A stretch of DNA of 64,000 bases from NCBI GenBank assembly GCA_019454165.1, contig CP075367.1, positions 67,971-131,970 of the forward strand. The letters run 5' to 3'. Below, in pieces: positions 7,861-18,423 of this stretch. The position numbers and the translations under genes are program-made. Under the pieces are notes generated by a model, which searched no databases, was not told the DNA's origin, and saw only the letters and a list, made by a program, of their open reading frames with translations. Position 1 is the stretch's first letter. Each line of letters begins with the position of its first letter. This DNA comes from Anaerolineales bacterium. GTDB taxonomy: Bacteria; Chloroflexota; Anaerolineae; Anaerolineales; UBA11579.

Positions 7861-8240
7861 CCACGCCGTTTTCTGAGGCCGCGCAAACGGTGGCCTTCGC
7901 GCAGCAAACCATCCAGCTCTTCCCAGTCAGTCTGCTCGTCTAAATACACGCCGATCCAGCCGCTCTTGCCCTGATAGGGCGGCACAAAATACTGTGCGGG
8001 CGCGGCCCGCACCAGCAGGTCGCGCTCGTCCGCTTCGGCCATGATCCACACCGCCGTTCGCCCATCACCGTGGTGCGTATCCGGCGAAGCGAACATGGCG
8101 AACATCTTGCCTTTGACGCGGAAGGTCGGCTCGCCCCAGGCTTCCACCTCGGTCGTGTCCGCCAGGCTGCGGCACAGCGTGCGCAGGCGCGCCAATTGGC
8201 TGCGTGAGTGTTGGCTTTGCTTCTTGGGCGGGTGCGCCAT
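7857..8240 (-). CDS. MmcQ/YjbR-family DNA-binding protein
   Basis: EAWGEPTFRVKGKMFAMFA...GWIGVYL pattern typical of the YjbR fold family. Confidence 0.7.
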   Translation of the reverse strand: MAHPPKKQSQHSRSQLARLRTLCRSLADTTEVEAWGEPTFRVKGKMFAMFASPDTHHGDGRTAVWIMAEADERDLLVRAAPAQYFVPPYQGKSGWIGVYLDEQTDWEELDGLLREGHRLRGLRKRRG

Positions 8241-9247
8241 TAAGCCTGGTATCGCTGGCGGATATTGGGCACCAGGTACTCATCAAAACAGCGCTTGAGG
8301 TCATACTCCGGCGCCCAGCCCCAGTCGGCCCGCGCCGCGCTGTCATCGATCCCCATCGGCCAGCTGTCTACGATGCCCTGGCGCTTCGCATCCGGCGCAA
8401 AGCTGATCTGCGCCTGCGGGAACGCCGCCAGCACCTGTTGTCGAAACTCCTCGGCAGACAAACTAAAACTGTTCACGTTATACGCCGTGCGGCTAAGCGC
8501 CTGGCGCGGCGCCGCGGCCAGGGTCAGCATCGCCTTGACTCCGTCCGGCATCGCCATGAACGCGATCGTGGTATCCGGCCGCACGAAGCACGCATACGGC
8601 TTGTCCTGCGCCGCCGCATGCAGCATCTCCGGCCCATAGTCGCTCGTGCCGCCCGTCGGCAGCGTGAACGCGCTGATCAAGCCCGGAAAGCGCAACGCCC
8701 GGAAGTCCAGCAGCGCCGCCGGCGCATCGCCCAGCTGCTTGTACCGGCGCGAGTAGTACGCGCCCAGCAGTTCCACCGCCAACTTGTTGGCGCCGTACAC
8801 CGTATCCGGGTGCAGCCATTCGTCTTCCTTCACGCGCGGGTTGGCCGCCTTCGTTTCCAGGTCCGGCATGCCGTAGATCGCCTTGGAGCTGGGGAAAATG
8901 AACTTGACCGCCACCCCCCGCGCCGCAGACTGGGCCGCGGCCAGCTCTAAAAGCAAAACGCTGGCATCCACGTTCACCTCGTGGGCCAGCGCCGGGGAAT
9001 GCTCCGCTCGCGTGGAGAGCAAAGCCGCCAGATGATAGATAGTGTCAAAGGTGTACTCGGCCCCCAAACGCTCGATCAGCGCCTTGTCCGTGATGCTGCC
9101 GGTCACATGCGTGGTTTCGCCGGCCAGCTCCTCCGGCATGGCGGCCAGATCCAAAGTGACGATGCGGGCATTGCCAGCCAGTTCGCGCACCAAAGCCTGG
9201 CCAATTTCGCCGGCTGCGCCAGTGATTAAAACAACGGGTTTGCTCAT
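8240..9247 (-). CDS. NAD-dependent epimerase/dehydratase-family protein, L-threonine 3-dehydrogenase-like
   Basis: VLITGAAGEIGQAL Rossmann motif, YGANK (YxxxK), and C-terminal QGIVDSWPMGIDDSAARADWGW resembling extended-SDR threonine dehydrogenases. Start at MSKPVVLITG (ATG 9245-9247). Confidence 0.65.
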   Translation of the reverse strand: MSKPVVLITGAAGEIGQALVRELAGNARIVTLDLAAMPEELAGETTHVTGSITDKALIERLGAEYTFDTIYHLAALLSTRAEHSPALAHEVNVDASVLLLELAAAQSAARGVAVKFIFPSSKAIYGMPDLETKAANPRVKEDEWLHPDTVYGANKLAVELLGAYYSRRYKQLGDAPAALLDFRALRFPGLISAFTLPTGGTSDYGPEMLHAAAQDKPYACFVRPDTTIAFMAMPDGVKAMLTLAAAPRQALSRTAYNVNSFSLSAEEFRQQVLAAFPQAQISFAPDAKRQGIVDSWPMGIDDSAARADWGWAPEYDLKRCFDEYLVPNIRQRYQA

Positions 9248-9339
9248 GGGCCTCTTTCGGGGGCTAAGTGGCAGTCGCCGCTCAGGGCTGATTATAAAAC
9301 AATGCCCCCAGCCGCCCCATTTGCCGCCTTCATTTTCAC

Positions 9340-10244: not shown

Positions 10245-11210
10245 ATGCCGACCCCAAGCCAAGAACGCATCTTCGTCACCCTCCTGCGCGAGATCGCCGC
10301 AGAGCAAGGCTACACCCTGACCTCCTTCTCGCAAGACTGGATCTTGCGCTTCGAAAAAGCGGGCCAGGCGCGCCATACCTTTGGTTTTAACTTTGAGATC
10401 AATTCCACCACCGCCTACATGCTGGCGGGCGATAAAGCCGCCGTGGCCGCCGTGCTGCAACACCAGGCCGTCCCCCACATTGAACACCGCTTCTTCATCA
10501 ACCCGAACCGCAGCACCTATGTGCCAGAGACTGGCCACTGGCCCGCCATCCTGGCTTACGCGCAGGAGCAAAACTACAACCTGGTCGCCAAGCCTAACGA
10601 GGGCACCGGCGGCCTGGGTGTGGTACGCGTCACCAACCAAGCCCAGCTTGAAAAAGCCGTCCTGAGCATTTTCCAAAAAGGCCAGTCGCTCAGCCTCTCG
10701 CCCTATTACGACATCCACAACGAGTACCGCCTCATCATGCTCGACGGCGAGTGCCAGCTGGCCTACGCCAAACAGCGCCCGCAGGTCAGCGGAGACGCAA
10801 CCGCCGGCCTGCGCGTCCTGATCGAGCGCCAGCTGCTGGCTGGCGCTATCACGCAGGCCCAGGCCGCCGAAGCGCTGGAGCAGCACCGCGACCGGCTTGA
10901 CGAGGTGCTGCCCGCCGGCCAGACCCTTACCATCAGTTGGAAACACAACCTCGGCGCCGGCTCGGCCCCCCAACTCCTCGATACCAACCCCCTGCTCGAG
11001 CATCTGTTGCCGCTCGCCATCGCCGCCCAGCAAGCCATCAACATTCGCTTCGCCTCGATCGACATCGTGGAGATCGAAGGCAGTCTGCGCGTGCTCGAGG
11101 TCAATTCGGGCATCATGATGGAGCATTTCGTCCAGCACCAGCCCCAGCACCGTGACACGGCCAAGGCCATCTACGCCCGCGCCCTCGAAAAGATGTTCGC
11201 CTCGCGCTGA
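10245..11210 (+). CDS. ATP-grasp domain protein (RimK/D-Ala-D-Ala ligase-like), function unknown
   Basis: LVAKPNEGTGGLGVVRV, EYRLIMLDGE and FASIDIVE...LEVNSG resemble ATP-grasp B and C subdomains. Start at MPTPSQ (ATG 10245). Confidence 0.65.
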   Translation: MPTPSQERIFVTLLREIAAEQGYTLTSFSQDWILRFEKAGQARHTFGFNFEINSTTAYMLAGDKAAVAAVLQHQAVPHIEHRFFINPNRSTYVPETGHWPAILAYAQEQNYNLVAKPNEGTGGLGVVRVTNQAQLEKAVLSIFQKGQSLSLSPYYDIHNEYRLIMLDGECQLAYAKQRPQVSGDATAGLRVLIERQLLAGAITQAQAAEALEQHRDRLDEVLPAGQTLTISWKHNLGAGSAPQLLDTNPLLEHLLPLAIAAQQAINIRFASIDIVEIEGSLRVLEVNSGIMMEHFVQHQPQHRDTAKAIYARALEKMFASR

Positions 11211-11222
11211 TAAAATCCTTGC

Positions 11223-11873
11223 GTGCCCGCGCGCGTTGCCATCCCCCGCTCCAAGCGCACCTTTGACCTACTTCTGACCCTGCTGGCGCTGCCGCTCCTG
11301 CTGCCGCTGGTGCTGCTCATCGGCCTGCTGGTGCGTATCTTCCTGGGCCGGCCCGTCCTGTTCCGCCAGCCGCGCCCAGGCATCGGCGGCCTGCCCTTCA
11401 TGCTCTACAAGTTCCGCACCATGCAGGACGCCCTGGGGCCAGACGGCCAGCCCCTGCCGGATGCCCAGCGCCTCACCGGCTTCGGCCGCCTGCTGCGCGC
11501 CAGCAGCCTTGACGAGCTGCCCGAACTCTGGAACGTGCTGCGCGGCGAGATGAGCCTGGTAGGCCCGCGCCCCCTCCTCATGAGATATCTCGACCGTTAC
11601 ACGCCCCAGCAGTTCCGCCGCCACCTCACCCTACCCGGCATGACCGGCTGGGCTCAGATCAACGGCCGCAACAACGTCTCGTGGGAAGACAAGTTCGCCC
11701 TGGATGTCTGGTACGTCGATAACTGGTCGCTGTGGCTCGACCTCAAGATCCTGCTGCTTACTCCGCTCAAAGTCCTGCGCCGCGAGGGTATCAACCAACC
11801 CGGCAACGCCACCGCCATGGAATTCATGGGCAGCACCCCGCCAAGCCCGGGCGAAAAAGGCCGCCCGTTATAA
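11223..11873 (+). CDS. Polyprenyl-phosphate sugar-phosphate transferase (small PglC/WbaP-C-type 'bacterial sugar transferase')
   Basis: KRTFDLLLTLLALPLLLPLVLLIGLLV re-entrant helix, then YKFRTM and DELPELWNVLRGEMSLVGPRP. Confidence 0.88.
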   Translation: MPARVAIPRSKRTFDLLLTLLALPLLLPLVLLIGLLVRIFLGRPVLFRQPRPGIGGLPFMLYKFRTMQDALGPDGQPLPDAQRLTGFGRLLRASSLDELPELWNVLRGEMSLVGPRPLLMRYLDRYTPQQFRRHLTLPGMTGWAQINGRNNVSWEDKFALDVWYVDNWSLWLDLKILLLTPLKVLRREGINQPGNATAMEFMGSTPPSPGEKGRPL

Positions 11874-11881
11874 TCCGCGCC

Positions 11882-12793
11882 ATGTCAGACGATGCCGCGC
11901 TGTACACCCAGCTCGCCACCATCCGCCGTTTTGAAGAAACCGTGCTGGATGCGTTCCCCAAAGGCGCCTTCTACGGCACCACCCACACCTACATCGGGCA
12001 GGAGGCCAATGCCGCCGGCGTCCTCGCTCACCTGCACGATAGCGATCTGGTCTTCAGCAACCACCGCTGCCACGGCCACTTCCTGGCCTATGGCGGCGAT
12101 GCGCGTGCCCTCTTCGCCGAACTGATGGGCAAAGCCACCGGCGTATGCGGCGGCATCGGCGGCTCGCAGCATCTGCACTGGAAGAATTTCTATTCCAACG
12201 GAGTCCTCGGCAGCACCGCCCCTATCGCGGTTGGCGCCGCCCTTGCGGAGAAGCGCAAGGGCAGCCAGGCCGTGACCGTGCTCTTCCTCGGCGACGGCGC
12301 TATGGGCGAGGGTGTGGTCTACGAGAGCCTAAACATCGCCTCGCTGTGGGGTGCGCCGATCCTCTTCGTCGTCGAGAACAATCACATCGCCCAAACCACG
12401 CCCACTGAGCTGGCGATGGCTGGCAGCCTGGCGGGCCGCTTCGCCGCCTTTAACATCCCCGCCGTCGAGCTCGACAGCAGCGACGCCCGCCAGATCTACG
12501 ACATTGCCGCGCAAGAGTTTGCCCAAGTGCGCAGCACACCCGGCCCGCGCGCCTTGATCCTGCACACCGCCCGCTTTGGCCCGCACTCCAAGGGCGACGA
12601 TACGCGCGACCCTGCCTTCATCGAGGAATTGCGCGCCATGCGTGACCCGCTCACCATCCACGGCGACCGCCTGGAAAATGGCCAACGCGCAGCCATCGAA
12701 GCCGAGGTGGATTCCGCCATCGCCGCGGCCTACGCCCAAGCCGAAGCCGATCCTCTGCCAGAGCACGCTGCCCATGTAAAGTCCGGCCATTAA
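11882..12793 (+). CDS. TPP-dependent 2-oxoacid dehydrogenase E1 component, alpha subunit
   Basis: TPP-binding motif LGDGAMGEGVVYESLNIASLWGAPILFVVENNHIAQ. Start at MSDDAALYTQL (ATG 11882). Confidence 0.88.
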   Translation: MSDDAALYTQLATIRRFEETVLDAFPKGAFYGTTHTYIGQEANAAGVLAHLHDSDLVFSNHRCHGHFLAYGGDARALFAELMGKATGVCGGIGGSQHLHWKNFYSNGVLGSTAPIAVGAALAEKRKGSQAVTVLFLGDGAMGEGVVYESLNIASLWGAPILFVVENNHIAQTTPTELAMAGSLAGRFAAFNIPAVELDSSDARQIYDIAAQEFAQVRSTPGPRALILHTARFGPHSKGDDTRDPAFIEELRAMRDPLTIHGDRLENGQRAAIEAEVDSAIAAAYAQAEADPLPEHAAHVKSGH

Positions 12794-12842
12794 TGACCTC
12801 CCTGCTCACTCCTCACTCCTCGCTCCTCACTGGTCTTTATTC

Positions 12843-13859
12843 ATGACCAGCGTGCTCGAATCACTCAACCAGGGGCTGCATGCTGCCTTCGCGCAGGATG
12901 CCCGCGTCTACCTCATCGGCGAAGACCTGCTCGATCCGTACGGAGGCGCCTTCAAGGTCAGCCGCAACCTCTCCACCCAGTACCCTGACCGCGTCTGGAC
13001 CAGCCCCGTGTCCGAAGCCGCCATTGCCGGCGTAGGCGCCGGCATGGCGTTGCGCGGCCTGCGCCCCGTCGTGGAGTTGATGTTCGGTGACTTCAGCACC
13101 CTGGTGGCCGACCAGCTCATCAACAGCATCACCAAGTTCCCCGCCATGTACAACGGCGCCGCCCAGGTGCCGGTCGTGATCCGTACGCCCATGGGCGGGC
13201 GCCGCGGCTATGGCCCCACCCACAGCCAAACGCTGGAGAAGCTCTATCTCGGCGTGCCCGGCTTGCGCGTCCTCGCCCCCAACACCCTGAGCGATCCTGG
13301 CGACTTGCTGCGCCGCGCCATCCTGGAACAGAACGACCCGGTCCTCTTTGTCGAGAACAAGGTTCTCTACCCCAAACAGGTTTTGGATAACGCCGCCCTG
13401 GCCGATTTCGAGATCGAGGCCAGCACGCAAGACTTTGCGCCCACCCATACACTGCGTCTCAAAGGCGCGCCGCGCCCCGCGCTCACCCTGACCGCCTACG
13501 GCTACATGGCCGAGCTGGCCCGCGAGGCCCTGACCCGCCTGGCCTTCGAGCACGAGATCTTTTGCGAACTGGTCGTCCCCACCCAGCTCGCGCCGCTGCC
13601 GGCTGACGGCGGGCTGCAGCTCGCCCTGCAAGCCTCGCTGCAGCACAGCAGGCGCCTGCTCACCATCGAGGAAGGCACCTACTCGCTGGGCTGGGGCGCC
13701 GAGCAGCTCGCCCGCGCCGCCCAGCACTTCGGCGGCCGCCTGCAGGCCGCCCGCCGCGTGGCCGCCGCCGAGGCGCCCATCCCGGCCGCCCGCAACCTTG
13801 AAGATGCCGCCCTGCCCGCGCTCGAAGACATCATCTCCGCCGCGCGGGAAATGGTATAA
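12843..13859 (+). CDS. 2-oxoacid dehydrogenase E1 component, beta subunit
   Basis: GEDLLDPYGGAFKVS, SEAAIAGVGAGMALRGLRPVVELMFGDF and a transketolase-C-like tail. Confidence 0.9.
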   Translation: MTSVLESLNQGLHAAFAQDARVYLIGEDLLDPYGGAFKVSRNLSTQYPDRVWTSPVSEAAIAGVGAGMALRGLRPVVELMFGDFSTLVADQLINSITKFPAMYNGAAQVPVVIRTPMGGRRGYGPTHSQTLEKLYLGVPGLRVLAPNTLSDPGDLLRRAILEQNDPVLFVENKVLYPKQVLDNAALADFEIEASTQDFAPTHTLRLKGAPRPALTLTAYGYMAELAREALTRLAFEHEIFCELVVPTQLAPLPADGGLQLALQASLQHSRRLLTIEEGTYSLGWGAEQLARAAQHFGGRLQAARRVAAAEAPIPAARNLEDAALPALEDIISAAREMV

Positions 13860-13866
13860 AGCCTTG

Positions 13867-14961
13867 ATGGCTGAAACCACCGCGCAGGCCGTTCACGTCC
13901 CGCTCATCAATCCCAACGAAACCGAAGCTCGCCTGGTGAGTTTGCCTGTTTCAAATGGCGATAAAGTCGCCAAAGGCGATACCCTGGCCACGCTGGAAAC
14001 CACCAAGTCGACCTTTGAGCTGCTTTCGGATGCGGATGGCTTTGTAGCCGGCCTGCAAGCCAAACAGGGCGATATGCTGCCCGCCGGGCAGGTGTTCCTG
14101 TACCTGGCCCCCAGCAAAGAATGGCAAGCTCCCCAAAAACAATCCGAAATTGAATCGGGCGTCCCCGATGGTCTGCGCATTACCCAGCCTGCCCTGCAAC
14201 TGGCCGAAAAACGCGGCATCGCCCTGGCCGCATTGCCCATCGGCCCCATCATCACTGAAGACTACATCGCCAAACTCGCTCCCAAAGCTGGCGAAGCCTC
14301 CTTTGCGATCCCAGACGCCGCCAGCCTGCCCAACTCCGTCATCGTCTACGGCGGCGGCGGCCACGGCAAAGCCGTGATCGATCTGCTGCGTGCCGCTGGC
14401 GGCTACACCCTGGCTGGCGTGGTGGATGACAGCCGCCAGCCGGGCGACCGCGTGCTGGATGCGGCCGTCATCGGCGGCGAAGCCGCACTGGCCGCCTTGC
14501 ACGCCGCCGGCTGCACCCGTGCGCTCAATGCCGTCGGCGGCATCGGCGCCATGAGTACCCGCATCACCGTATTCGACCGCCTGGAAGCCGCCGGCTTCGA
14601 GCTGCCCACGCTCGTTCACCCGAGCGCCGTCGTGGAACCCAGCGCCCAGCTCGGCCCCGGCGTGCAGGTCTTCCCGCACGCCTACATCGGCTCGGATGCA
14701 CGCATCGGCAAAGGCGTCATCGTCAACACCGGCGCCATCGTCTCGCATGATTGCGTGCTGGAAGACTACGTCAACCTGGCCCCGGGCAGCATCCTGGCCG
14801 GCAATGTCCAGGTCAGCCGCGGCACCCTGATCGGCATGGGCGTCACCATCAACCTGAACGTGCACATCGGCAGCCTGGCCCGCATCGGCAACGGCGCCAC
14901 GGTCAAAGACGCCGTCCCCGACGGCGGCGTAGTCCGCGCCGGCACAATCTGGCCGTCTTAA
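13867..14961 (+). CDS. Fusion protein: lipoyl domain, degenerate E1/E3-binding segment, and NeuD/PglD-family hexapeptide acyltransferase
   Basis: Lipoyl-lysine context LATLETTKSTFEL; RITQPALQLAEKRGIALAAL; then VIVYGGGGHGKAVIDLLRAAGGYTLAGVVDD and imperfect hexapeptide repeats (IGKGVIVNTGAIVSHD...VTINLNVHIGSLARIGNGATV). No DHRxxDG E2 catalytic motif. Confidence 0.8.
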   Translation: MAETTAQAVHVPLINPNETEARLVSLPVSNGDKVAKGDTLATLETTKSTFELLSDADGFVAGLQAKQGDMLPAGQVFLYLAPSKEWQAPQKQSEIESGVPDGLRITQPALQLAEKRGIALAALPIGPIITEDYIAKLAPKAGEASFAIPDAASLPNSVIVYGGGGHGKAVIDLLRAAGGYTLAGVVDDSRQPGDRVLDAAVIGGEAALAALHAAGCTRALNAVGGIGAMSTRITVFDRLEAAGFELPTLVHPSAVVEPSAQLGPGVQVFPHAYIGSDARIGKGVIVNTGAIVSHDCVLEDYVNLAPGSILAGNVQVSRGTLIGMGVTINLNVHIGSLARIGNGATVKDAVPDGGVVRAGTIWPS

Positions 14962-15064
14962 ACATCTCAGTATCTTTTTGACAAACTTGCTCTGCTAAGG
15001 GAATTCTGCAAAACACCCCTATTCCAACGCGGGTCACACTGAAGCCCTGCCTGGGCTGCACCAC

Positions 15065-15157
15065 CCAGACTGATCCGTCTGGAGGGGGTTCTGCGCTGCT
15101 GCGCAGCGCTGGGGGAACTAGCAGTTCCCCTAAGCGGGGTCAGGGGCAGAGCCCCTG
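15065..15157. repeat. Run of four short GC-rich hairpins (REP-like)
   Basis: CCAGAC-tgatcc-GTCTGG; GCGCTGC-tgc-GCAGCGC; GGGGAACT-agc-AGTTCCCC; CAGGGGC-aga-GCCCCTG. Confidence 0.6.
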
Positions 15158-15261
15158 AAAAAGAAAATCTTTGTTTCGTGCAATATCTAAAACGCGTCCT
15201 CATCACCGTCGGGAGAGGCAGGCTTTAAAAAGAGATTAGTTTTTTCTGTTACATTTCCCCC

Positions 15262-16170
15262 ATGGCCACCGGCAAACGCAGTTCCAAAAAAGGCACGCGC
15301 AGCCGTGCCTTTGGCTCCTCCAGCCGAGAGAACCACGATGCCAGCGGCTTCTACAACAGCTCGCTCTACGCCAAGCTCCCGGCTGAAAGCAACACCCCCT
15401 ACACCCAAACCGAGCTGCCCGCCGACGCCCGCAACCGCATCTTCGCTCACAGCAGCGAAGACATGCACGAGCTGCCCGACAACAGCGTGCACCTCATGGT
15501 CACCTCACCGCCCTACAACGCCGGCAAGGAATACGACAAAGACCTCGACCTTGAGCAATATCTGGGCATGCTGCGCCGCGTCTGGGCCGAGACCTTGCGC
15601 GTGCTGATGCCCGGCGGCCGCGCCTGCATCAACGTGGCCAACCTGGGCCGCAAGCCCTACATTCCCCTGCACGCCTTCATCATCCACGACATGCTTTCGC
15701 TCGGCTACCTGATGCGCGGCGAGATCATCTGGGATAAGGCCAGCTCGGCCGGCGGCTCCACCGCCTGGGGTTCCTGGCGCAGCGCCAGCAACCCCACCCT
15801 GAGGGATGTGCACGAGTACATCCTCGTCTTCAGCAAGGACCGCTTCGGCCGCCCGGCGCCCAAAGACGCCAACCGCTTCACCAGCGAACGTGATGATTTT
15901 CTGCAGAACACCAAAAGCGTCTGGAGCTTTCCCACCGTCTCCGCCAAAAAGATCGGCCACCCCGCACCCTTTCCGGAGGAGTTGCCGCGCCGCCTGATCG
16001 AGCTCTACACTTTCCCCGGCGAAGTGGTGCTCGATCCCTTCATGGGCAGCGGCACCAGCGCCATAGCTGCGCTCCGTACGGAGCGCAGCTATGTGGGCTA
16101 CGAGATGGATAAGAAATACGCCAAACTGGCCGAAAAGCGCATTGCCAGCTCCACGACTCAAGCCACTTAG
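15262..16170 (+). CDS. DNA methyltransferase (N4-cytosine/N6-adenine, beta-class, pfam01555-like)
   Basis: Motif IV LMVTSPPYNAGKEY precedes motif I VLDPFMGSGTSAIAA. No adjacent endonuclease gene. Confidence 0.85.
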   Translation: MATGKRSSKKGTRSRAFGSSSRENHDASGFYNSSLYAKLPAESNTPYTQTELPADARNRIFAHSSEDMHELPDNSVHLMVTSPPYNAGKEYDKDLDLEQYLGMLRRVWAETLRVLMPGGRACINVANLGRKPYIPLHAFIIHDMLSLGYLMRGEIIWDKASSAGGSTAWGSWRSASNPTLRDVHEYILVFSKDRFGRPAPKDANRFTSERDDFLQNTKSVWSFPTVSAKKIGHPAPFPEELPRRLIELYTFPGEVVLDPFMGSGTSAIAALRTERSYVGYEMDKKYAKLAEKRIASSTTQAT

Positions 16171-16185
16171 CAGTACACTTTCCCC

Positions 16186-16836
16186 ATGGAAACCACCTGG
16201 CAATCTGTAGACAAGTTCCTCGAAAGTCTGACCGCCCCTGACGACCCTGTGCTGGCTGCCGCCGTGCAGGCCGCCGAGCAAGCCGGCCTGCCCAGCATCC
16301 AGGTCTCGGCCATGCAGGGCCAGCTCCTGCATATCCTCGCCCGCGCCATCGGCGCCAAACGCATCCTCGAAGTCGGCACCCTGGCCGGCTACAGCGGCAT
16401 CTGGCTCGCCCGTGCCCTGCCGGCCGATGGCCTGCTGGTCACGCTCGAAGCCGACCCCAAACACGCCGCCGTAGCCCAGGCCAACTTTGCCGCCGCCGGC
16501 CTCGCCGAGCGCGTGGACCTGCGCCAGGGCGCCGCTCTCGACACCCTGCCGACCCTACTGCCGCAGTTCGCCGCCGGCTTTGATCTCTGCTTCCTCGACG
16601 CCGACAAGCCCAACCTGCCCGCCTACTTCGACTGGGCGCGCAAGCTCACCCGCAAAGGCGGCCTCATCATCAGTGACAACGTGGTGCGCAACGGCGAGGT
16701 CATAGACGGGCAGGATCCCAACAGCACGGGCGCACGCAATCTATTGCAAGCGCTGGGGAAGACGGGCAACAGCACGGTCATCCAGACCGTGGGCAGCAAG
16801 GGTTACGACGGTTTCGCGCTCACCATCGTGGAGTAG
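16186..16836 (+). CDS. Class I SAM-dependent O-methyltransferase (family 3, caffeoyl-CoA OMT/YrrM-like)
   Basis: ILEVGTLAGYSGIWLARAL SAM motif, FDLCFLDADKPN, GGLIISDNV. Confidence 0.85.
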   Translation: METTWQSVDKFLESLTAPDDPVLAAAVQAAEQAGLPSIQVSAMQGQLLHILARAIGAKRILEVGTLAGYSGIWLARALPADGLLVTLEADPKHAAVAQANFAAAGLAERVDLRQGAALDTLPTLLPQFAAGFDLCFLDADKPNLPAYFDWARKLTRKGGLIISDNVVRNGEVIDGQDPNSTGARNLLQALGKTGNSTVIQTVGSKGYDGFALTIVE

Positions 16837-16842
16837 CCCCCG

Positions 16843-17847
16843 CTAGTGCCCCGCGTCCTGGGTATAGAAGTCAACCACCCGCGACGGCGTCTTGGTAGCG
16901 ATCAGGTCAAAGAAGTATTGGGCTTCCTCGTACGATCCATCATGGCCCTGATGCCCGATAGACGGCTGTACCCGCAGGCCTAGCCAGCCCTTCTTCTCCT
17001 CGTATTTCTGCAGCAGCGGCAGCGTGTCCGTTCCAAACGGGTTTGAACGGTCATACTGGTTCTGGATCAAAAAGAGCGGCGGCAGGCTTTCAGCCTTGCC
17101 CGCCTCGGCATAAACATTCGGCGCGCCGACTAACTCAATATCCTCTTTGGACACCAGCTCGGTGTACACGGTCTGGACGCCGCGCTGGCGATACTCTGCG
17201 ATCTTGCTCTTCAAGTCAATGATCGGCGTCGTCACATACACGCCGTCCGCGGCGTGCTTGATCCCGTGATACAGAGCGGCAAAGCCGCCCATCGATGCGC
17301 CCATGCTGAACCAAAGGCGGCTCCCTCGCTCGCGCATCTTCTCGCGTATCAGGCCCTGGGTCATCGCTTCCACATAGTTCCTGCCATCCGTGCCCCAGAA
17401 CCAACTCCCGAGCGACTTCCAGCCAAAGTTGTCGTACGGCAGCAACAGATCAAAATGCTTCCAGCTATAGCGCAGGGGATACACCTCAAAGCCCAGGTAG
17501 CCATGAAAGACCACGACCAGCCCCTTGGGCTGCTCCACCGCCGGGAAGAACACATAACGCAAGCTGCCCCCATCCTCGTGCTCATAAATGGATGGGAAGT
17601 GACTGCTCAGGTCCTTATTGGCTTCTTCTTTCTTGAGGTTGCTGCGGCTGTGTTTGCGCGCAAAGGTGCGGATCGCGCCAACATCCGACGCCAGGATCAG
17701 ATCGCGGTCGGCATTCGCCAGCGGGAAGCTGGCCTGCGCGCTGGGGCGAAACATGGAGCTGATGCTTCGCCAGGCTTGGCGTAAACCCAGAACCCGCACT
17801 TTGTTGGCAAAGCGCTTGACCCTATGCAGCAATGAAAGTTGGCTCAA
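16843..17847 (-). CDS. Alpha/beta-fold hydrolase (esterase-like), hypothetical
   Basis: Nucleophile elbow GASMGG, VVFHGY and a late HQGHD. TTG start. Confidence 0.6.
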   Translation of the reverse strand: MSQLSLLHRVKRFANKVRVLGLRQAWRSISSMFRPSAQASFPLANADRDLILASDVGAIRTFARKHSRSNLKKEEANKDLSSHFPSIYEHEDGGSLRYVFFPAVEQPKGLVVVFHGYLGFEVYPLRYSWKHFDLLLPYDNFGWKSLGSWFWGTDGRNYVEAMTQGLIREKMRERGSRLWFSMGASMGGFAALYHGIKHAADGVYVTTPIIDLKSKIAEYRQRGVQTVYTELVSKEDIELVGAPNVYAEAGKAESLPPLFLIQNQYDRSNPFGTDTLPLLQKYEEKKGWLGLRVQPSIGHQGHDGSYEEAQYFFDLIATKTPSRVVDFYTQDAGH

Positions 17848-17880
17848 CGCAAGCTCCGTGGGTCATTATACTTACGCACT

Positions 17881-18423
17881 ATGAACATCACCGTCTTCGG
17901 CTCCGCCTCCCCGCAACCTGGCCACCCCGCCTACGAGGAAGCCCGCCGCCTGGGCGAGCTGCTCGCCCGCGCCGGCCACACTGTGCTCACCGGCGGCTAC
18001 ATGGGCACCATGGAAGCCGCCTCGCGCGGCGCCGCCGAAGCCGGCGGCCACGTGGTCGGCGTGACCTGCCAACAGATCGAGGATTGGCGCGCCGCCAAGC
18101 ACAACCCCTGGGTCCTCGAGGAGCGCAAGTTCCCCACCCTGCGCGAGCGCCTCTACTGCCTGGTCGACTCGTGCGATGCCGCCCTGGCGCTGCCCGGCGG
18201 CATCGGCACCCTCGACGAGATCGTCACCATGTGGAGCCAGATGCAAACCGCCGCCATGCCGGTGCGCCCGCTCATCCTCATCGGCCAGGGTTGGCGTCGC
18301 ACCATCACCGCTCTGCTCGAAGCCCAGGACGAGCACATCCGCCCGGCTCATCGTGACCTGCTCACCTTCGCCGAAGACATTGATAACGCCGTCACCAAGC
18401 TGGCCGAGGCGCTGGCGGTCTGA
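17881..18423 (+). CDS. LOG-family / TIGR00730-type Rossmann-fold nucleotide-binding protein
   Basis: ITVFGSAS...VLTGGYMGTMEAASRGAAEAGGHVVGV...ALPGGIGTLDEI. Confidence 0.8.
   Translation: MNITVFGSASPQPGHPAYEEARRLGELLARAGHTVLTGGYMGTMEAASRGAAEAGGHVVGVTCQQIEDWRAAKHNPWVLEERKFPTLRERLYCLVDSCDAALALPGGIGTLDEIVTMWSQMQTAAMPVRPLILIGQGWRRTITALLEAQDEHIRPAHRDLLTFAEDIDNAVTKLAEALAV

Follow-up and report, generated by a model that had tools for sequence, protein, structure and literature searches.

A stretch of 64,000 nucleotides of the Anaerolineales bacterium contig CP075367.1 (referred to throughout, at its full length, as the window) contains five co-directional open reading frames (ORFs) on the + strand between positions 10245 and 14961, the last of which encodes a lipoyl domain fused to a predicted N-acyltransferase of amino sugars. 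The ORFs are separated by gaps of exactly 12, 8, 49 and 7 nt, and their start codons match the lengths of their orthologs. The first (10245..11210, 321 residues) encodes an ATP-grasp amide ligase that RimK, ATP-grasp and ATPgrasp_ST match weakly when the protein is searched alone, the assignment being firm with a profile built from 12 orthologs. It is followed by a small monotopic phosphoglycosyl transferase (PGT) of the PglC type (11223..11873, 216 residues; Bac_transf, 2.3e-60) and by the alpha subunit (11882..12793, 303 residues; E1_dh, 9.5e-54) and beta subunit (12843..13859, 338 residues; Transket_pyr, 5e-28, and Transketolase_C, 7e-10) of a thiamine diphosphate (ThDP)-dependent E1, as in 2-oxoacid dehydrogenases. 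The fifth ORF (13867..14961, 364 residues) encodes the fusion, in which Pfam, NCBIfam and fold comparison identify a lipoyl domain, a peripheral subunit-binding domain (PSBD) and an N-acyltransferase of the PglD/PerB type.

A preliminary description of this DNA, made from the letters alone, had listed the same five genes and gap sizes, and all were reproduced at the coordinates given above; its assignments (ATP-grasp ligase, PGT, E1 alpha, E1 beta and a lipoyl-NeuD fusion) are borne out by Pfam and NCBIfam, and the motifs LATLETTKSTFEL, RITQPALQLAEKRGIALAAL, VIVYGGGGHGKAVIDLL and GDGAMGEG...VVENNHIAQ were all located in the window proteins. It had also stated that the window encodes neither a dihydrolipoyl dehydrogenase (E3) nor a conventional E2 acyltransferase. 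Indeed, a regular-expression search of all six frames of the 64-kb window returned no DH[RK]xxDG motif (E2) and no GG[TS]CxxxGCxP motif (E3), and queries for E3, the lipoate-protein ligase LplA and the aminotransferase DegT gave no tblastn match in the window. Promoter and terminator scans of the cluster yielded nothing beyond the expectation from shuffled sequence. The two E1 genes are separated by a 49-nt spacer (12794-12842) of pyrimidine-rich CTCC/CTCAC repeats (CCTCCCTGCTCACTCCTCACTCCTCGCTCCTCACTGG), which resemble an anti-Shine-Dalgarno sequence, whereas in several orthologous loci the genes overlap or abut. One related locus, L005, is 95-99% identical to the window.

The N-terminal lipoyl domain of the fusion protein (residues 9-78, 13891..14100, +; Biotin_lipoyl, 5e-11) contains the predicted lipoylation site, Lys47 (codon 14005-14007), which is invariant in an alignment of 30 sequences. 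The PSBD (residues ~104-140, 14176..14286, +) has a loop three residues shorter than usual. Beyond it lie a PglD_N nucleotide-sugar-binding domain with a GGGGHGK motif (residues 158-239, 14338..14583, +; 1e-10) and a left-handed beta-helix (LbH) acyltransferase domain (residues 246-356, 14602..14934, +; Hexapep, 1.7e-14) that carries the predicted catalytic residue, His294 (codon 14746-14748), aligned to His141 of PerB. The fusion exceeds the TIGR03570 NeuD/PglB/VioB cutoff (182.4 bits against 160.8, NCBIfam), and no 2-oxoacid_dh domain was matched by Pfam or NCBIfam over its catalytic region. NCBIfam PRK14875 covers the lipoyl region only, at 32 bits against a cutoff of 307.

An AlphaFold2 model of the fusion, computed from the 30-sequence alignment, has a mean predicted local distance difference test (pLDDT) score of 92.7. 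When the model was compared with the PDB using Foldseek, its C-terminal 210 residues superimposed on the perosamine N-acetyltransferase PerB with a template modelling (TM) score of 0.92 and 38% identity, followed by the acetyltransferase domain of Neisseria PglB, PglD, WeeI and VioB; the top 21 matches are all LbH enzymes of the PerB/PglB/PglD class. By sequence, PerB (4ea7) matches the LbH domain at 2.7e-28, and the PglD_N domain aligns from PerB residue 12 onward. The N-terminus resembles the lipoyl domains of pyruvate dehydrogenase (PDH) E2, with the L2 domain 3crk_C superimposing at a TM score of 0.82. No superposition of an E2 core on the fusion was found in the same Foldseek comparison, in which the best matches to E2 chains reached a TMt of 0.18. 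A normal E2 fold or a missing lipoyl fold, each of which would contradict the preliminary description, was thus looked for both by sequence and by Foldseek, and neither was found.

The segment between the lipoyl and sugar-binding domains is more divergent. The preliminary description had named matches to a lipoyl domain, E3_binding and a NeuD-type LbH domain with no 2-oxoacid_dh as support; the first and third of these and the absence of 2-oxoacid_dh were found, whereas Pfam E3_binding stayed silent, matching none of 30 family members at E values up to 1. A profile of the segment (window protein residues 98-145) run against PDB sequences nevertheless matched the solved PSBDs 1w4i (1.6e-6), 1w4j (7.7e-6), 2eq8_C (5e-5), 2eq9_C (3e-4) and 2btg (0.018), the alignment showing a three-residue deletion in the loop. 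In the AlphaFold2 model, helices span residues 107-115, 120-122 (short) and 131-137 of the segment, the last two with a loop between them, and the block-mean pLDDT drops here from 86-89 to about 75. Reading the silence of Pfam as a sign that the PSBD is missing was rejected on the strength of the segment profile, and what had been called a degenerate subunit-binding segment turns out to be a divergent PSBD homologue, but a genuine one.

The residues that matter for these activities are strongly conserved. Among the positions without variation in the 30-sequence alignment, which extends down to 26% identity, are Glu44 and Lys47, both in the ETTK hairpin, and His294, which is aligned to the PerB residue changed in the H141N and H141A mutants of the depositors (4eaa, 4eab). 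In a larger set of 408 fusions of 335-420 residues (407 collected relatives and the window protein) the lipoyl-lysine column holds K in 407 of 408 and the catalytic histidine column holds H in 407 of 408. The lysine is flanked by Thr or Ser; biotinyl domains typically have Met-Lys-Met here. The GGGGH.K motif is equally conserved in fusions and in stand-alone enzymes. A column-by-column comparison of the 408 fusions with 44 stand-alone LbH enzymes identified positions that are invariant specifically in the fusions (E257, G275, S276, S293, M324, T327 and N342), and S293, beside the catalytic histidine, stands where the stand-alone enzymes have E or D. The conservation of Lys47 and His294 points to purifying selection on the very residues that a lipoyl-dependent acyl transfer would need. 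Because lipoyl, PSBD and LbH domains occur together without an E2 core, we read the fusion, from its sequence and its predicted structure, as an E2-type chain (lipoyl domain, then PSBD) in which the catalytic core has been swapped for an LbH sugar N-acyltransferase.

This architecture is widespread. Among the best 8000 candidates scored, at least 2377 clusters at 90% identity pass 1e-5, and an exhaustive search returned 436 representatives at 50% identity with E values of 1e-30 or below, most of them aligned over their full length. Since hundreds of homologues of 360-380 residues share the domain order of the fusion, the arrangement is no accident of gene calling. Carriers belong to the Chloroflexota (Anaerolineae and others), Bacillota, Bacteroidota, Omnitrophota and Armatimonadota, and include Bacillus sp. 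NRRL B-14911, Anaerocolumna xylanovorans, Chitinophagaceae, Ferruginibacter, Polaribacter and Dokdonia; this breadth comes from protein searches and a metagenome scan, the best 80 loci by similarity in the scan of genome contigs all being from Chloroflexota. Databases label the family as NeuD/PglB/VioB family sugar acetyltransferases or as lipoyl-binding-domain proteins. Among relatives of odd length we found tandem LbH proteins, N-terminal extensions and one DUF5671 fusion, and no Rosetta-stone protein joining E1 or PGT to the lipoyl-LbH chain.

The E1 encoded beside the fusion is of the PDH type. The best solved relative of E1 alpha is human PDH E1 alpha (8e-42, compared with about 1e-20 for branched-chain 2-oxoacid dehydrogenase, BCKDH), and E1 beta matches human PDH E1 beta at 1.6e-43. 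E1 alpha keeps the GDG...ENN motif for ThDP, and its 'GPHS' histidine is aligned to that of human 'HGHS'; likewise the 'PTHSQ' histidine of E1 beta is aligned to human 'AQHSQ' and is kept in all fusion-linked E1s examined. We take these two histidines to be the catalytic ones. The fusion-linked E1s form a coherent subfamily, with the window E1 alpha 45-49% identical to those of Bacillota, whereas the fusions themselves, window against Bacillota, are less similar than their E1 alphas (32% identical). Signatures of the subfamily are ENN[HRQK][IY]AQ[TS]T, SNHR[CG]HGH, HSKGDD and PMGGxRGYGPTHSQ, and the loop after ENN reads AQ[TS]T where canonical PDH has GMGT.

Linkage between this E1 and the fusion was evaluated in a tblastn survey of 170 loci, in which the metagenome-derived loci are those among the matches listed. 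Where at least 1.1 kb of upstream sequence was available, E1 lies immediately upstream of 86 of 96 fusions, and it occurs anywhere in the locus for 93 of the 96. In the same metagenome scan, no E1 was found near the stand-alone NeuD-type genes (0 of 66 loci), and comparison of 86/96 with 0/41 stand-alone loci having enough flank gives a Fisher test value of 8e-26, a figure that ignores phylogeny. The E1-fusion pair recurs far outside the genomes related to the window, in several phyla, where the preliminary description had raised the recurrence of the neighbourhood as a check.

In six distant loci (L085 to L090) E1 alpha and beta are themselves fused into one protein of 640-685 residues that abuts the lipoyl-LbH fusion: Bacillus sp. 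NRRL B-14911 (L085, in a polysaccharide locus), a Chitinophagaceae metagenome-assembled genome (MAG; L086), a metagenome contig (L087), A. xylanovorans (L088), a Dokdonia MAG (L089) and an Omnitrophota MAG (L090, in a nonulosonic-acid cluster). Five of the six sit in polysaccharide or nonulosonic-acid clusters, which carry DegT aminotransferases, 4,6-dehydratases, glycosyltransferases, Wzx/Wzy or ABC exporters, and NeuB with a CMP-transferase. The Omnitrophota cluster encodes a stand-alone PglD-like enzyme as well as the E1-linked fusion.

Two loci also encode the rest of a lipoyl cycle. In A. xylanovorans the order is PGT, epimerase, three GT4 genes, E1 alpha-beta, fusion, lipoate-protein ligase, dihydrolipoyl dehydrogenase and DegT, with the ligase scoring 312 bits on TIGR00545 (cutoff 280) and the dehydrogenase 401.7 bits on TIGR01350; in L099 the order is E1 alpha, E1 beta, LplA, E3 and fusion, with E3 at 477.6 bits (cutoff 408.8). 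The presence of LplA and E3 in the operon is hard to explain unless the arm is lipoylated and cycles between oxidised and dihydro forms.

These data bear on another reading, in which the protein is an ordinary acyl-CoA-dependent NeuD/PglD enzyme whose lipoyl-PSBD segment serves only as an anchor, either to E1/E3 or to the housekeeping PDH complex, so that acetyl-CoA is channelled or the enzyme regulated, and the arm at no time bears the acyl group destined for the sugar. The C-terminal 210 residues, over the TIGR03570 cutoff at 182 bits with all catalytic residues present, would suffice for such an enzyme, and the plain NeuD/PglB/VioB acetyltransferase label given by databases agrees with it. 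Docking would leave unexplained, however, the near-absolute conservation of the lysine (407/408), a dedicated and co-evolving E1 that accompanies 86 of 96 fusions and no stand-alone enzyme, and the LplA and E3 encoded in the clusters, so that we judge it improbable.

Locus organization varies around the pair. Among Anaerolineae, four loci (L051, L058, L059 and L063) have an unrelated gene inserted ahead of the fusion and after E1 beta, encoding a conserved protein of ~427 residues whose N-terminus shows a zinc-ribbon-like CPxCG motif, L041 has a different protein of 359 residues at this position, and in L036 DeoC-like and aldehyde dehydrogenase-like genes separate E1 alpha from E1 beta. In the Dokdonia MAG (L089, 1-11110) the pair follows genes of the nonribosomal peptide synthetase type (AMP-binding, PP-binding, Condensation) and a TonB-dependent receptor, with no glycan cluster in that stretch, and the lipoyl domain of this fusion went undetected by Pfam; the acceptor in this lineage may perhaps not be a sugar.

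The metagenome contig L087 has, downstream of the pair (11273-17545), a second, separate pair of E1 alpha and E1 beta genes whose active-site signature differs, together with a short-chain dehydrogenase/reductase (SDR), a split transketolase (Transketolase_N and Transket_pyr) and several methyltransferases. This second set may serve C2 branching or be a second acyl-generating system. A further reading has the E1 of the window form a C-C bond on a keto sugar to add a two-carbon branch, with the fusion working as a separate acetyltransferase. Such branching has reportedly been proposed for the PDH-E1-like pairs AviB1/AviB2 (eurekanate of avilamycin) and AlmDI/DII (aldgarose), and E1-like pairs lacking a lipoyl partner do occur in sugar clusters, as at L087 13008-15036. 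That pair, however, differs in its active-site signature from the fusion-linked subfamily, and branching explains neither the tie of this subfamily to lipoyl-bearing acyltransferases nor the LplA and E3 in the operon. We therefore give this explanation very little credence.

The genes around the module point to assembly of a glycan on a lipid carrier. The PGT aligns over residues 11-204 with residues 11-204 of 8g1n, an N,N'-diacetylbacillosaminyl-1-phosphate transferase (6.8e-57), and both SLDELP and GPRP are retained. Of the 67 Anaerolineae loci with 4 kb or more of sequence upstream, 48 encode a PglC-like PGT. Outside the window's clade, 32 of 61 Anaerolineae loci have a gene for a PseC/LegC-like aminotransferase as the next one downstream of the fusion, and 37 of 61 have it anywhere in the locus; within the clade (fusion at least 57% identical) the adjacent aminotransferase is found in 0 of 15 loci, and the ATP-grasp gene has been gained instead. 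Of the 13 non-Chloroflexi loci with enough sequence downstream, 9 contain DegT-type genes, and PGT and DegT genes also accompany the pair on the non-Chloroflexi contigs L088, L094, L096 and L103. The common operon is thus PGT, E1 alpha, E1 beta, lipoyl-PglD and aminotransferase, which resembles pglC-pglD-pglE with an E1 and a swinging arm added. The closest solved relatives of the LbH domain are likewise N-acetyltransferases of nucleoside diphosphate (NDP)-linked 4-amino-4,6-dideoxy sugars.

This setting is difficult to reconcile with a purely catabolic role, in which the fusion would be the acyl-CoA-forming part of an unusual pyruvate, acetoin or other 2-oxoacid dehydrogenase and no sugar would be involved. 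Both E1 subunits are indeed most like those of PDH, lipoyl and PSBD domains are present, and AcoC of acetoin dehydrogenase, in which a lipoyl domain is fused to an acetyltransferase of the alpha/beta-hydrolase fold, shows that a lipoyl protein can bear a non-canonical catalytic domain; the match to PRK14875, which is limited to the lipoyl part, can also be counted on this side. Yet the PglD_N domain and its GGGGH.K motif are conserved, a PglC-type PGT adjoins the module in most Anaerolineae, and in several phyla the module sits inside glycan clusters with DegT, 4,6-dehydratases, glycosyltransferases, Wzx/Wzy, ABC transporters and NeuB, the copy of Bacillus sp. NRRL B-14911 lying within a polysaccharide locus. 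A catabolic E2 is in our estimation highly unlikely.

The ATP-grasp gene, 12 nt upstream of the PGT gene, is confined to the close clade of the window (loci L001-L017). The profile of its 12 orthologs finds cyanophycin synthetase (1.5e-10) and the RimK-domain protein 8fxh (1.5e-8), with GshAB also close; the RimK Pfam family matches all 12 orthologs, while ATPgrasp_ST gives the window protein 18 bits against a cutoff of 31.4 and matches 8 of the 12 weakly (best 5.7e-5). From these relationships it is predicted to be a clade-specific accessory amide ligase, outside the conserved core of the system. In Neisseria, a PGT domain is fused either to an acetyltransferase (PglB, which makes diNAcBac) or to an ATP-grasp domain (PglB2, which makes the glyceramido sugar GATDH) (PMC11130364). 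Because PglB2 joins ATP-grasp and PGT in this way, the window enzyme might, by analogy, be a second, ATP-driven N-acyl ligase instead of adding an amino acid as the preliminary description had suggested.

Taken together, we consider it probable, though well short of certain, that E1 alpha, E1 beta and the fusion form a dedicated miniature complex of the 2-oxoacid dehydrogenase type that ends in N-acylation of a sugar and not in acyl-CoA. In the proposed cycle, E1 alpha-beta with ThDP would decarboxylate a small 2-oxo acid, pyruvate being the default guess, and would reductively acylate the lipoyl group on Lys47 of the N-terminal swinging arm. The NeuD/PglD LbH family acts as a trimer; here the trimer would replace the E2 core, with the PSBD keeping E1 and/or E3 on it. 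The acyl-dihydrolipoyl arm would then enter the PglD/PerB-type active site at His294, where a nucleotide-linked, bacillosamine-type 4-amino-4,6-dideoxy sugar would accept the acyl group on its 4-amino group, directly and without CoA, after which the arm would be re-oxidised by a dihydrolipoyl dehydrogenase encoded elsewhere in the genome. The adjacent PglC-type PGT would move the N-acylated sugar phosphate to polyprenyl phosphate and so start a glycan. The net reaction would be 2-oxo acid + NDP-amino sugar + NAD+ -> CO2 + NDP-acylamido sugar + NADH.

The nature of the acyl group deserves comment. Because E1 is much nearer to PDH than to BCKDH, we take conversion of pyruvate to acetyl as the default, whereas the AQ[TS]T loop, and the Omnitrophota cluster that encodes both a PglD-like enzyme and the fusion, leave room for another small acyl group. 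At 8240-9253 (-) in the window lies a divergent gene for an extended SDR, separated from the cluster by lexA, a position kept throughout the window's clade. In NCBIfam it is closest to D-erythronate dehydrogenase, at 110 bits far under the cutoff of 325; the product of that enzyme is a 2-oxo acid, 2-oxo-tetronate. Speculatively, the SDR might supply the substrate of E1 in the form of 2-oxo-tetronate, whose oxidative decarboxylation would give a glyceroyl group.

Several observations weigh against the lipoyl-dependent N-acylation proposed here. The substrate of E1, the transfer of the acyl group, lipoylation and the acceptor are inferred throughout, and the pathway is locally incomplete in that no gene for E3, LplA, an aminotransferase or a 4,6-dehydratase was found in the window. 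It is not apparent what a cell would gain by taking acetyl from pyruvate where acetyl-CoA is at hand, so that the acyl group may be a different one. In the Anaerolineales the whole region is syntenic (PanD, SDR, LexA, the cluster, S15, PNPase), and adjacency within a conserved gene order proves little alone; the evidence from this order is thus weak and the distant lineages are decisive. A few fusions have no E1 nearby. One of them (L081) looks disrupted by low-complexity sequence, and in another (L072) the 1.2 kb upstream of the fusion contain no large ORF. L092 (9875-12064) encodes a full-length fusion, DegT and an ABC exporter in direct succession, and no E1 was seen in the 10 kb to either side. 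This last is a genuine exception, and its fusion may use an E1 encoded elsewhere. Finally, the comparison of the 408 fusions with the 44 stand-alone LbH enzymes revealed no clear loss of the CoA-binding site.

This last point fits an alternative in which the arm enters from the acceptor side, acylates a CoA bound in the donor tunnel of the LbH domain and leaves, whereupon the acyl-CoA acylates the amino sugar; CoA would then be a catalytic shuttle, needed without drawing on the acyl-CoA pool. The structure of PerB was solved with CoA in place, and the LbH domain shares 38% identity with PerB and superimposes on it at a TM score of 0.92; set against the stand-alone enzymes, its C-terminal coils have no obvious gaps and have not obviously lost conserved positions, and all of the linkage evidence fits a relay equally well. 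Two substrates would, however, have to alternate in the acceptor site, which is not known for this family, and the invariant M324 and N342 in the distal coils and S293 beside the histidine, replacing E/D, suggest a remodelled site. The sequence data do not separate such a relay from direct transfer; we regard the relay as unlikely but as deserving to be kept in mind.

For direct transfer by E1 and the lipoyl arm, the central interpretation of the preliminary description (an acyl group loaded by E1 onto the arm and delivered by the fused beta-helix domain to an amino sugar that the PGT then primes onto polyprenyl phosphate) agrees with every computational test available, and it is strengthened by the linkage across phyla and by the LplA and E3 encoded in the clusters. 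Whether the systems in at least five phyla form a single multienzyme class, in which E1 and a lipoyl arm would feed acyl groups from 2-oxo acids to an LbH trimer for CoA-free N-acylation of sugars, is a broader proposal for which we see the case as evenly poised.

Elsewhere in the window, extra genes lie between the fusion and a LOG-family gene (17839-18423) when the region is compared with syntenic loci, so that 15262-17847 is a small variable island. It comprises an adenine-specific DNA methyltransferase (15262-16170), also present in L001 and absent from L003, and ORFs of 216 residues (16186-16836) and 334 residues (16843-17847, -) that have no NCBIfam match. Between 27940 and 36651 (-) is a run of polytopic membrane proteins that by eye resemble subunits of NADH:quinone oxidoreductase (NuoN, two NuoM-like paralogues, NuoL and NuoH) and appear ordinary; the strong positive AT skew here (0.2-0.28) is probably due to this run.

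If the proposed N-acylation is correct, it would be a third acyl-donor route for sugar N-acylation, beside acyl-CoA- or ACP (acyl carrier protein)-dependent transferases and ATP-grasp ligases, and the first case of a lipoyl swinging arm handing its cargo to a carbohydrate, extending the swinging-arm principle to glycan tailoring. It may be a route to unusual N-acyl groups (glycolyl, glyceroyl, propionyl) on bacillosamine-type or nonulosonic-acid sugars, and it would correct the annotation of thousands of entries now named 'NeuD/PglB/VioB family sugar acetyltransferase'. The conserved housekeeping neighbourhood of the module in Anaerolineae points to a core glycan of the envelope in a phylum that is still poorly understood. 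An LbH trimer with three lipoyl-PSBD arms would also be a minimal and tractable model of E2 scaffolding. The preliminary description knew of no characterised example, and this held in the open full-text literature (subscription-only articles being outside that scope), where neither a lipoyl-LbH fusion nor E1-dependent sugar N-acylation is described and no paper covered contains both 'lipoyl' and 'bacillosamine'. One paper considered as a description of the architecture (PMC4875605) was set aside, its 'lipoyl' denoting fatty acylation. The domain architecture is thus visible in databases, and as far as we could determine its meaning has apparently not been worked out before.

The module can be compared with several known systems. 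It shares with the 2-oxoacid dehydrogenases (PDH, 2-oxoglutarate dehydrogenase (OGDH) and BCKDH) a heterotetramer-type ThDP E1 alpha/beta, closest to PDH E1, and a chain that begins with a lipoyl domain, its lysine at the hairpin, followed by a PSBD; at two related loci it also shares LplA and E3 in the operon. It differs in that the E2 core of the chloramphenicol acetyltransferase (CAT) fold with DHRxxDG is absent and is replaced by a nucleotide-sugar domain and a PglD/PerB-type LbH, in its predicted acceptor, which would be an amino sugar and not CoA, and in its context, glycan assembly in place of central metabolism. AcoC, like the fusion, is a lipoyl protein with a non-canonical catalytic domain, but that domain has another fold and its acceptor is CoA.

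To PglD, the acetyltransferase domain of PglB, PerB and VioB the fusion is related by the same two-domain fold (TM scores of 0.88-0.92), the GGGGH.K motif, a score over the TIGR03570 cutoff, a catalytic histidine (PerB His141, PglD His125) matched by His294, and a PglC-type PGT and a PglE/PseC-type aminotransferase as partners. Unlike these enzymes, which take acetyl-CoA as donor, it has about 150 additional N-terminal residues (lipoyl and PSBD) that are found in no characterised member, is tied to a dedicated E1, and has invariant LbH residues of its own (S293, M324, N342 and others). The coupling of a PglC-type PGT to a 4-amino N-acylating enzyme is also seen in Neisseria PglB and PglB2, and the window PGT gene is flanked by an ATP-grasp gene on one side and an LbH acyltransferase gene on the other; in the window, however, the genes are separate and the LbH enzyme bears a lipoyl arm.

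Besides AcoC, the nearest functional parallel is found in modules of the QncN/QncL/QncM type, in which a ThDP enzyme works with a lipoyl domain and an E2 acyltransferase domain to pass a glycolicacyl unit to an ACP (summarised in PMC6335953). The Qnc proteins use a split, transketolase-type ThDP enzyme, a canonical E2 domain and an ACP, whereas the window encodes an E1_dh-type enzyme and an LbH domain with an amino sugar as predicted acceptor, and no E2 domain or PP-binding gene was found in the five-gene cluster. What the two would have in common is a PDH-like ThDP and lipoyl module that has been recruited to biosynthesis and delivers its acyl group to an acceptor other than CoA.

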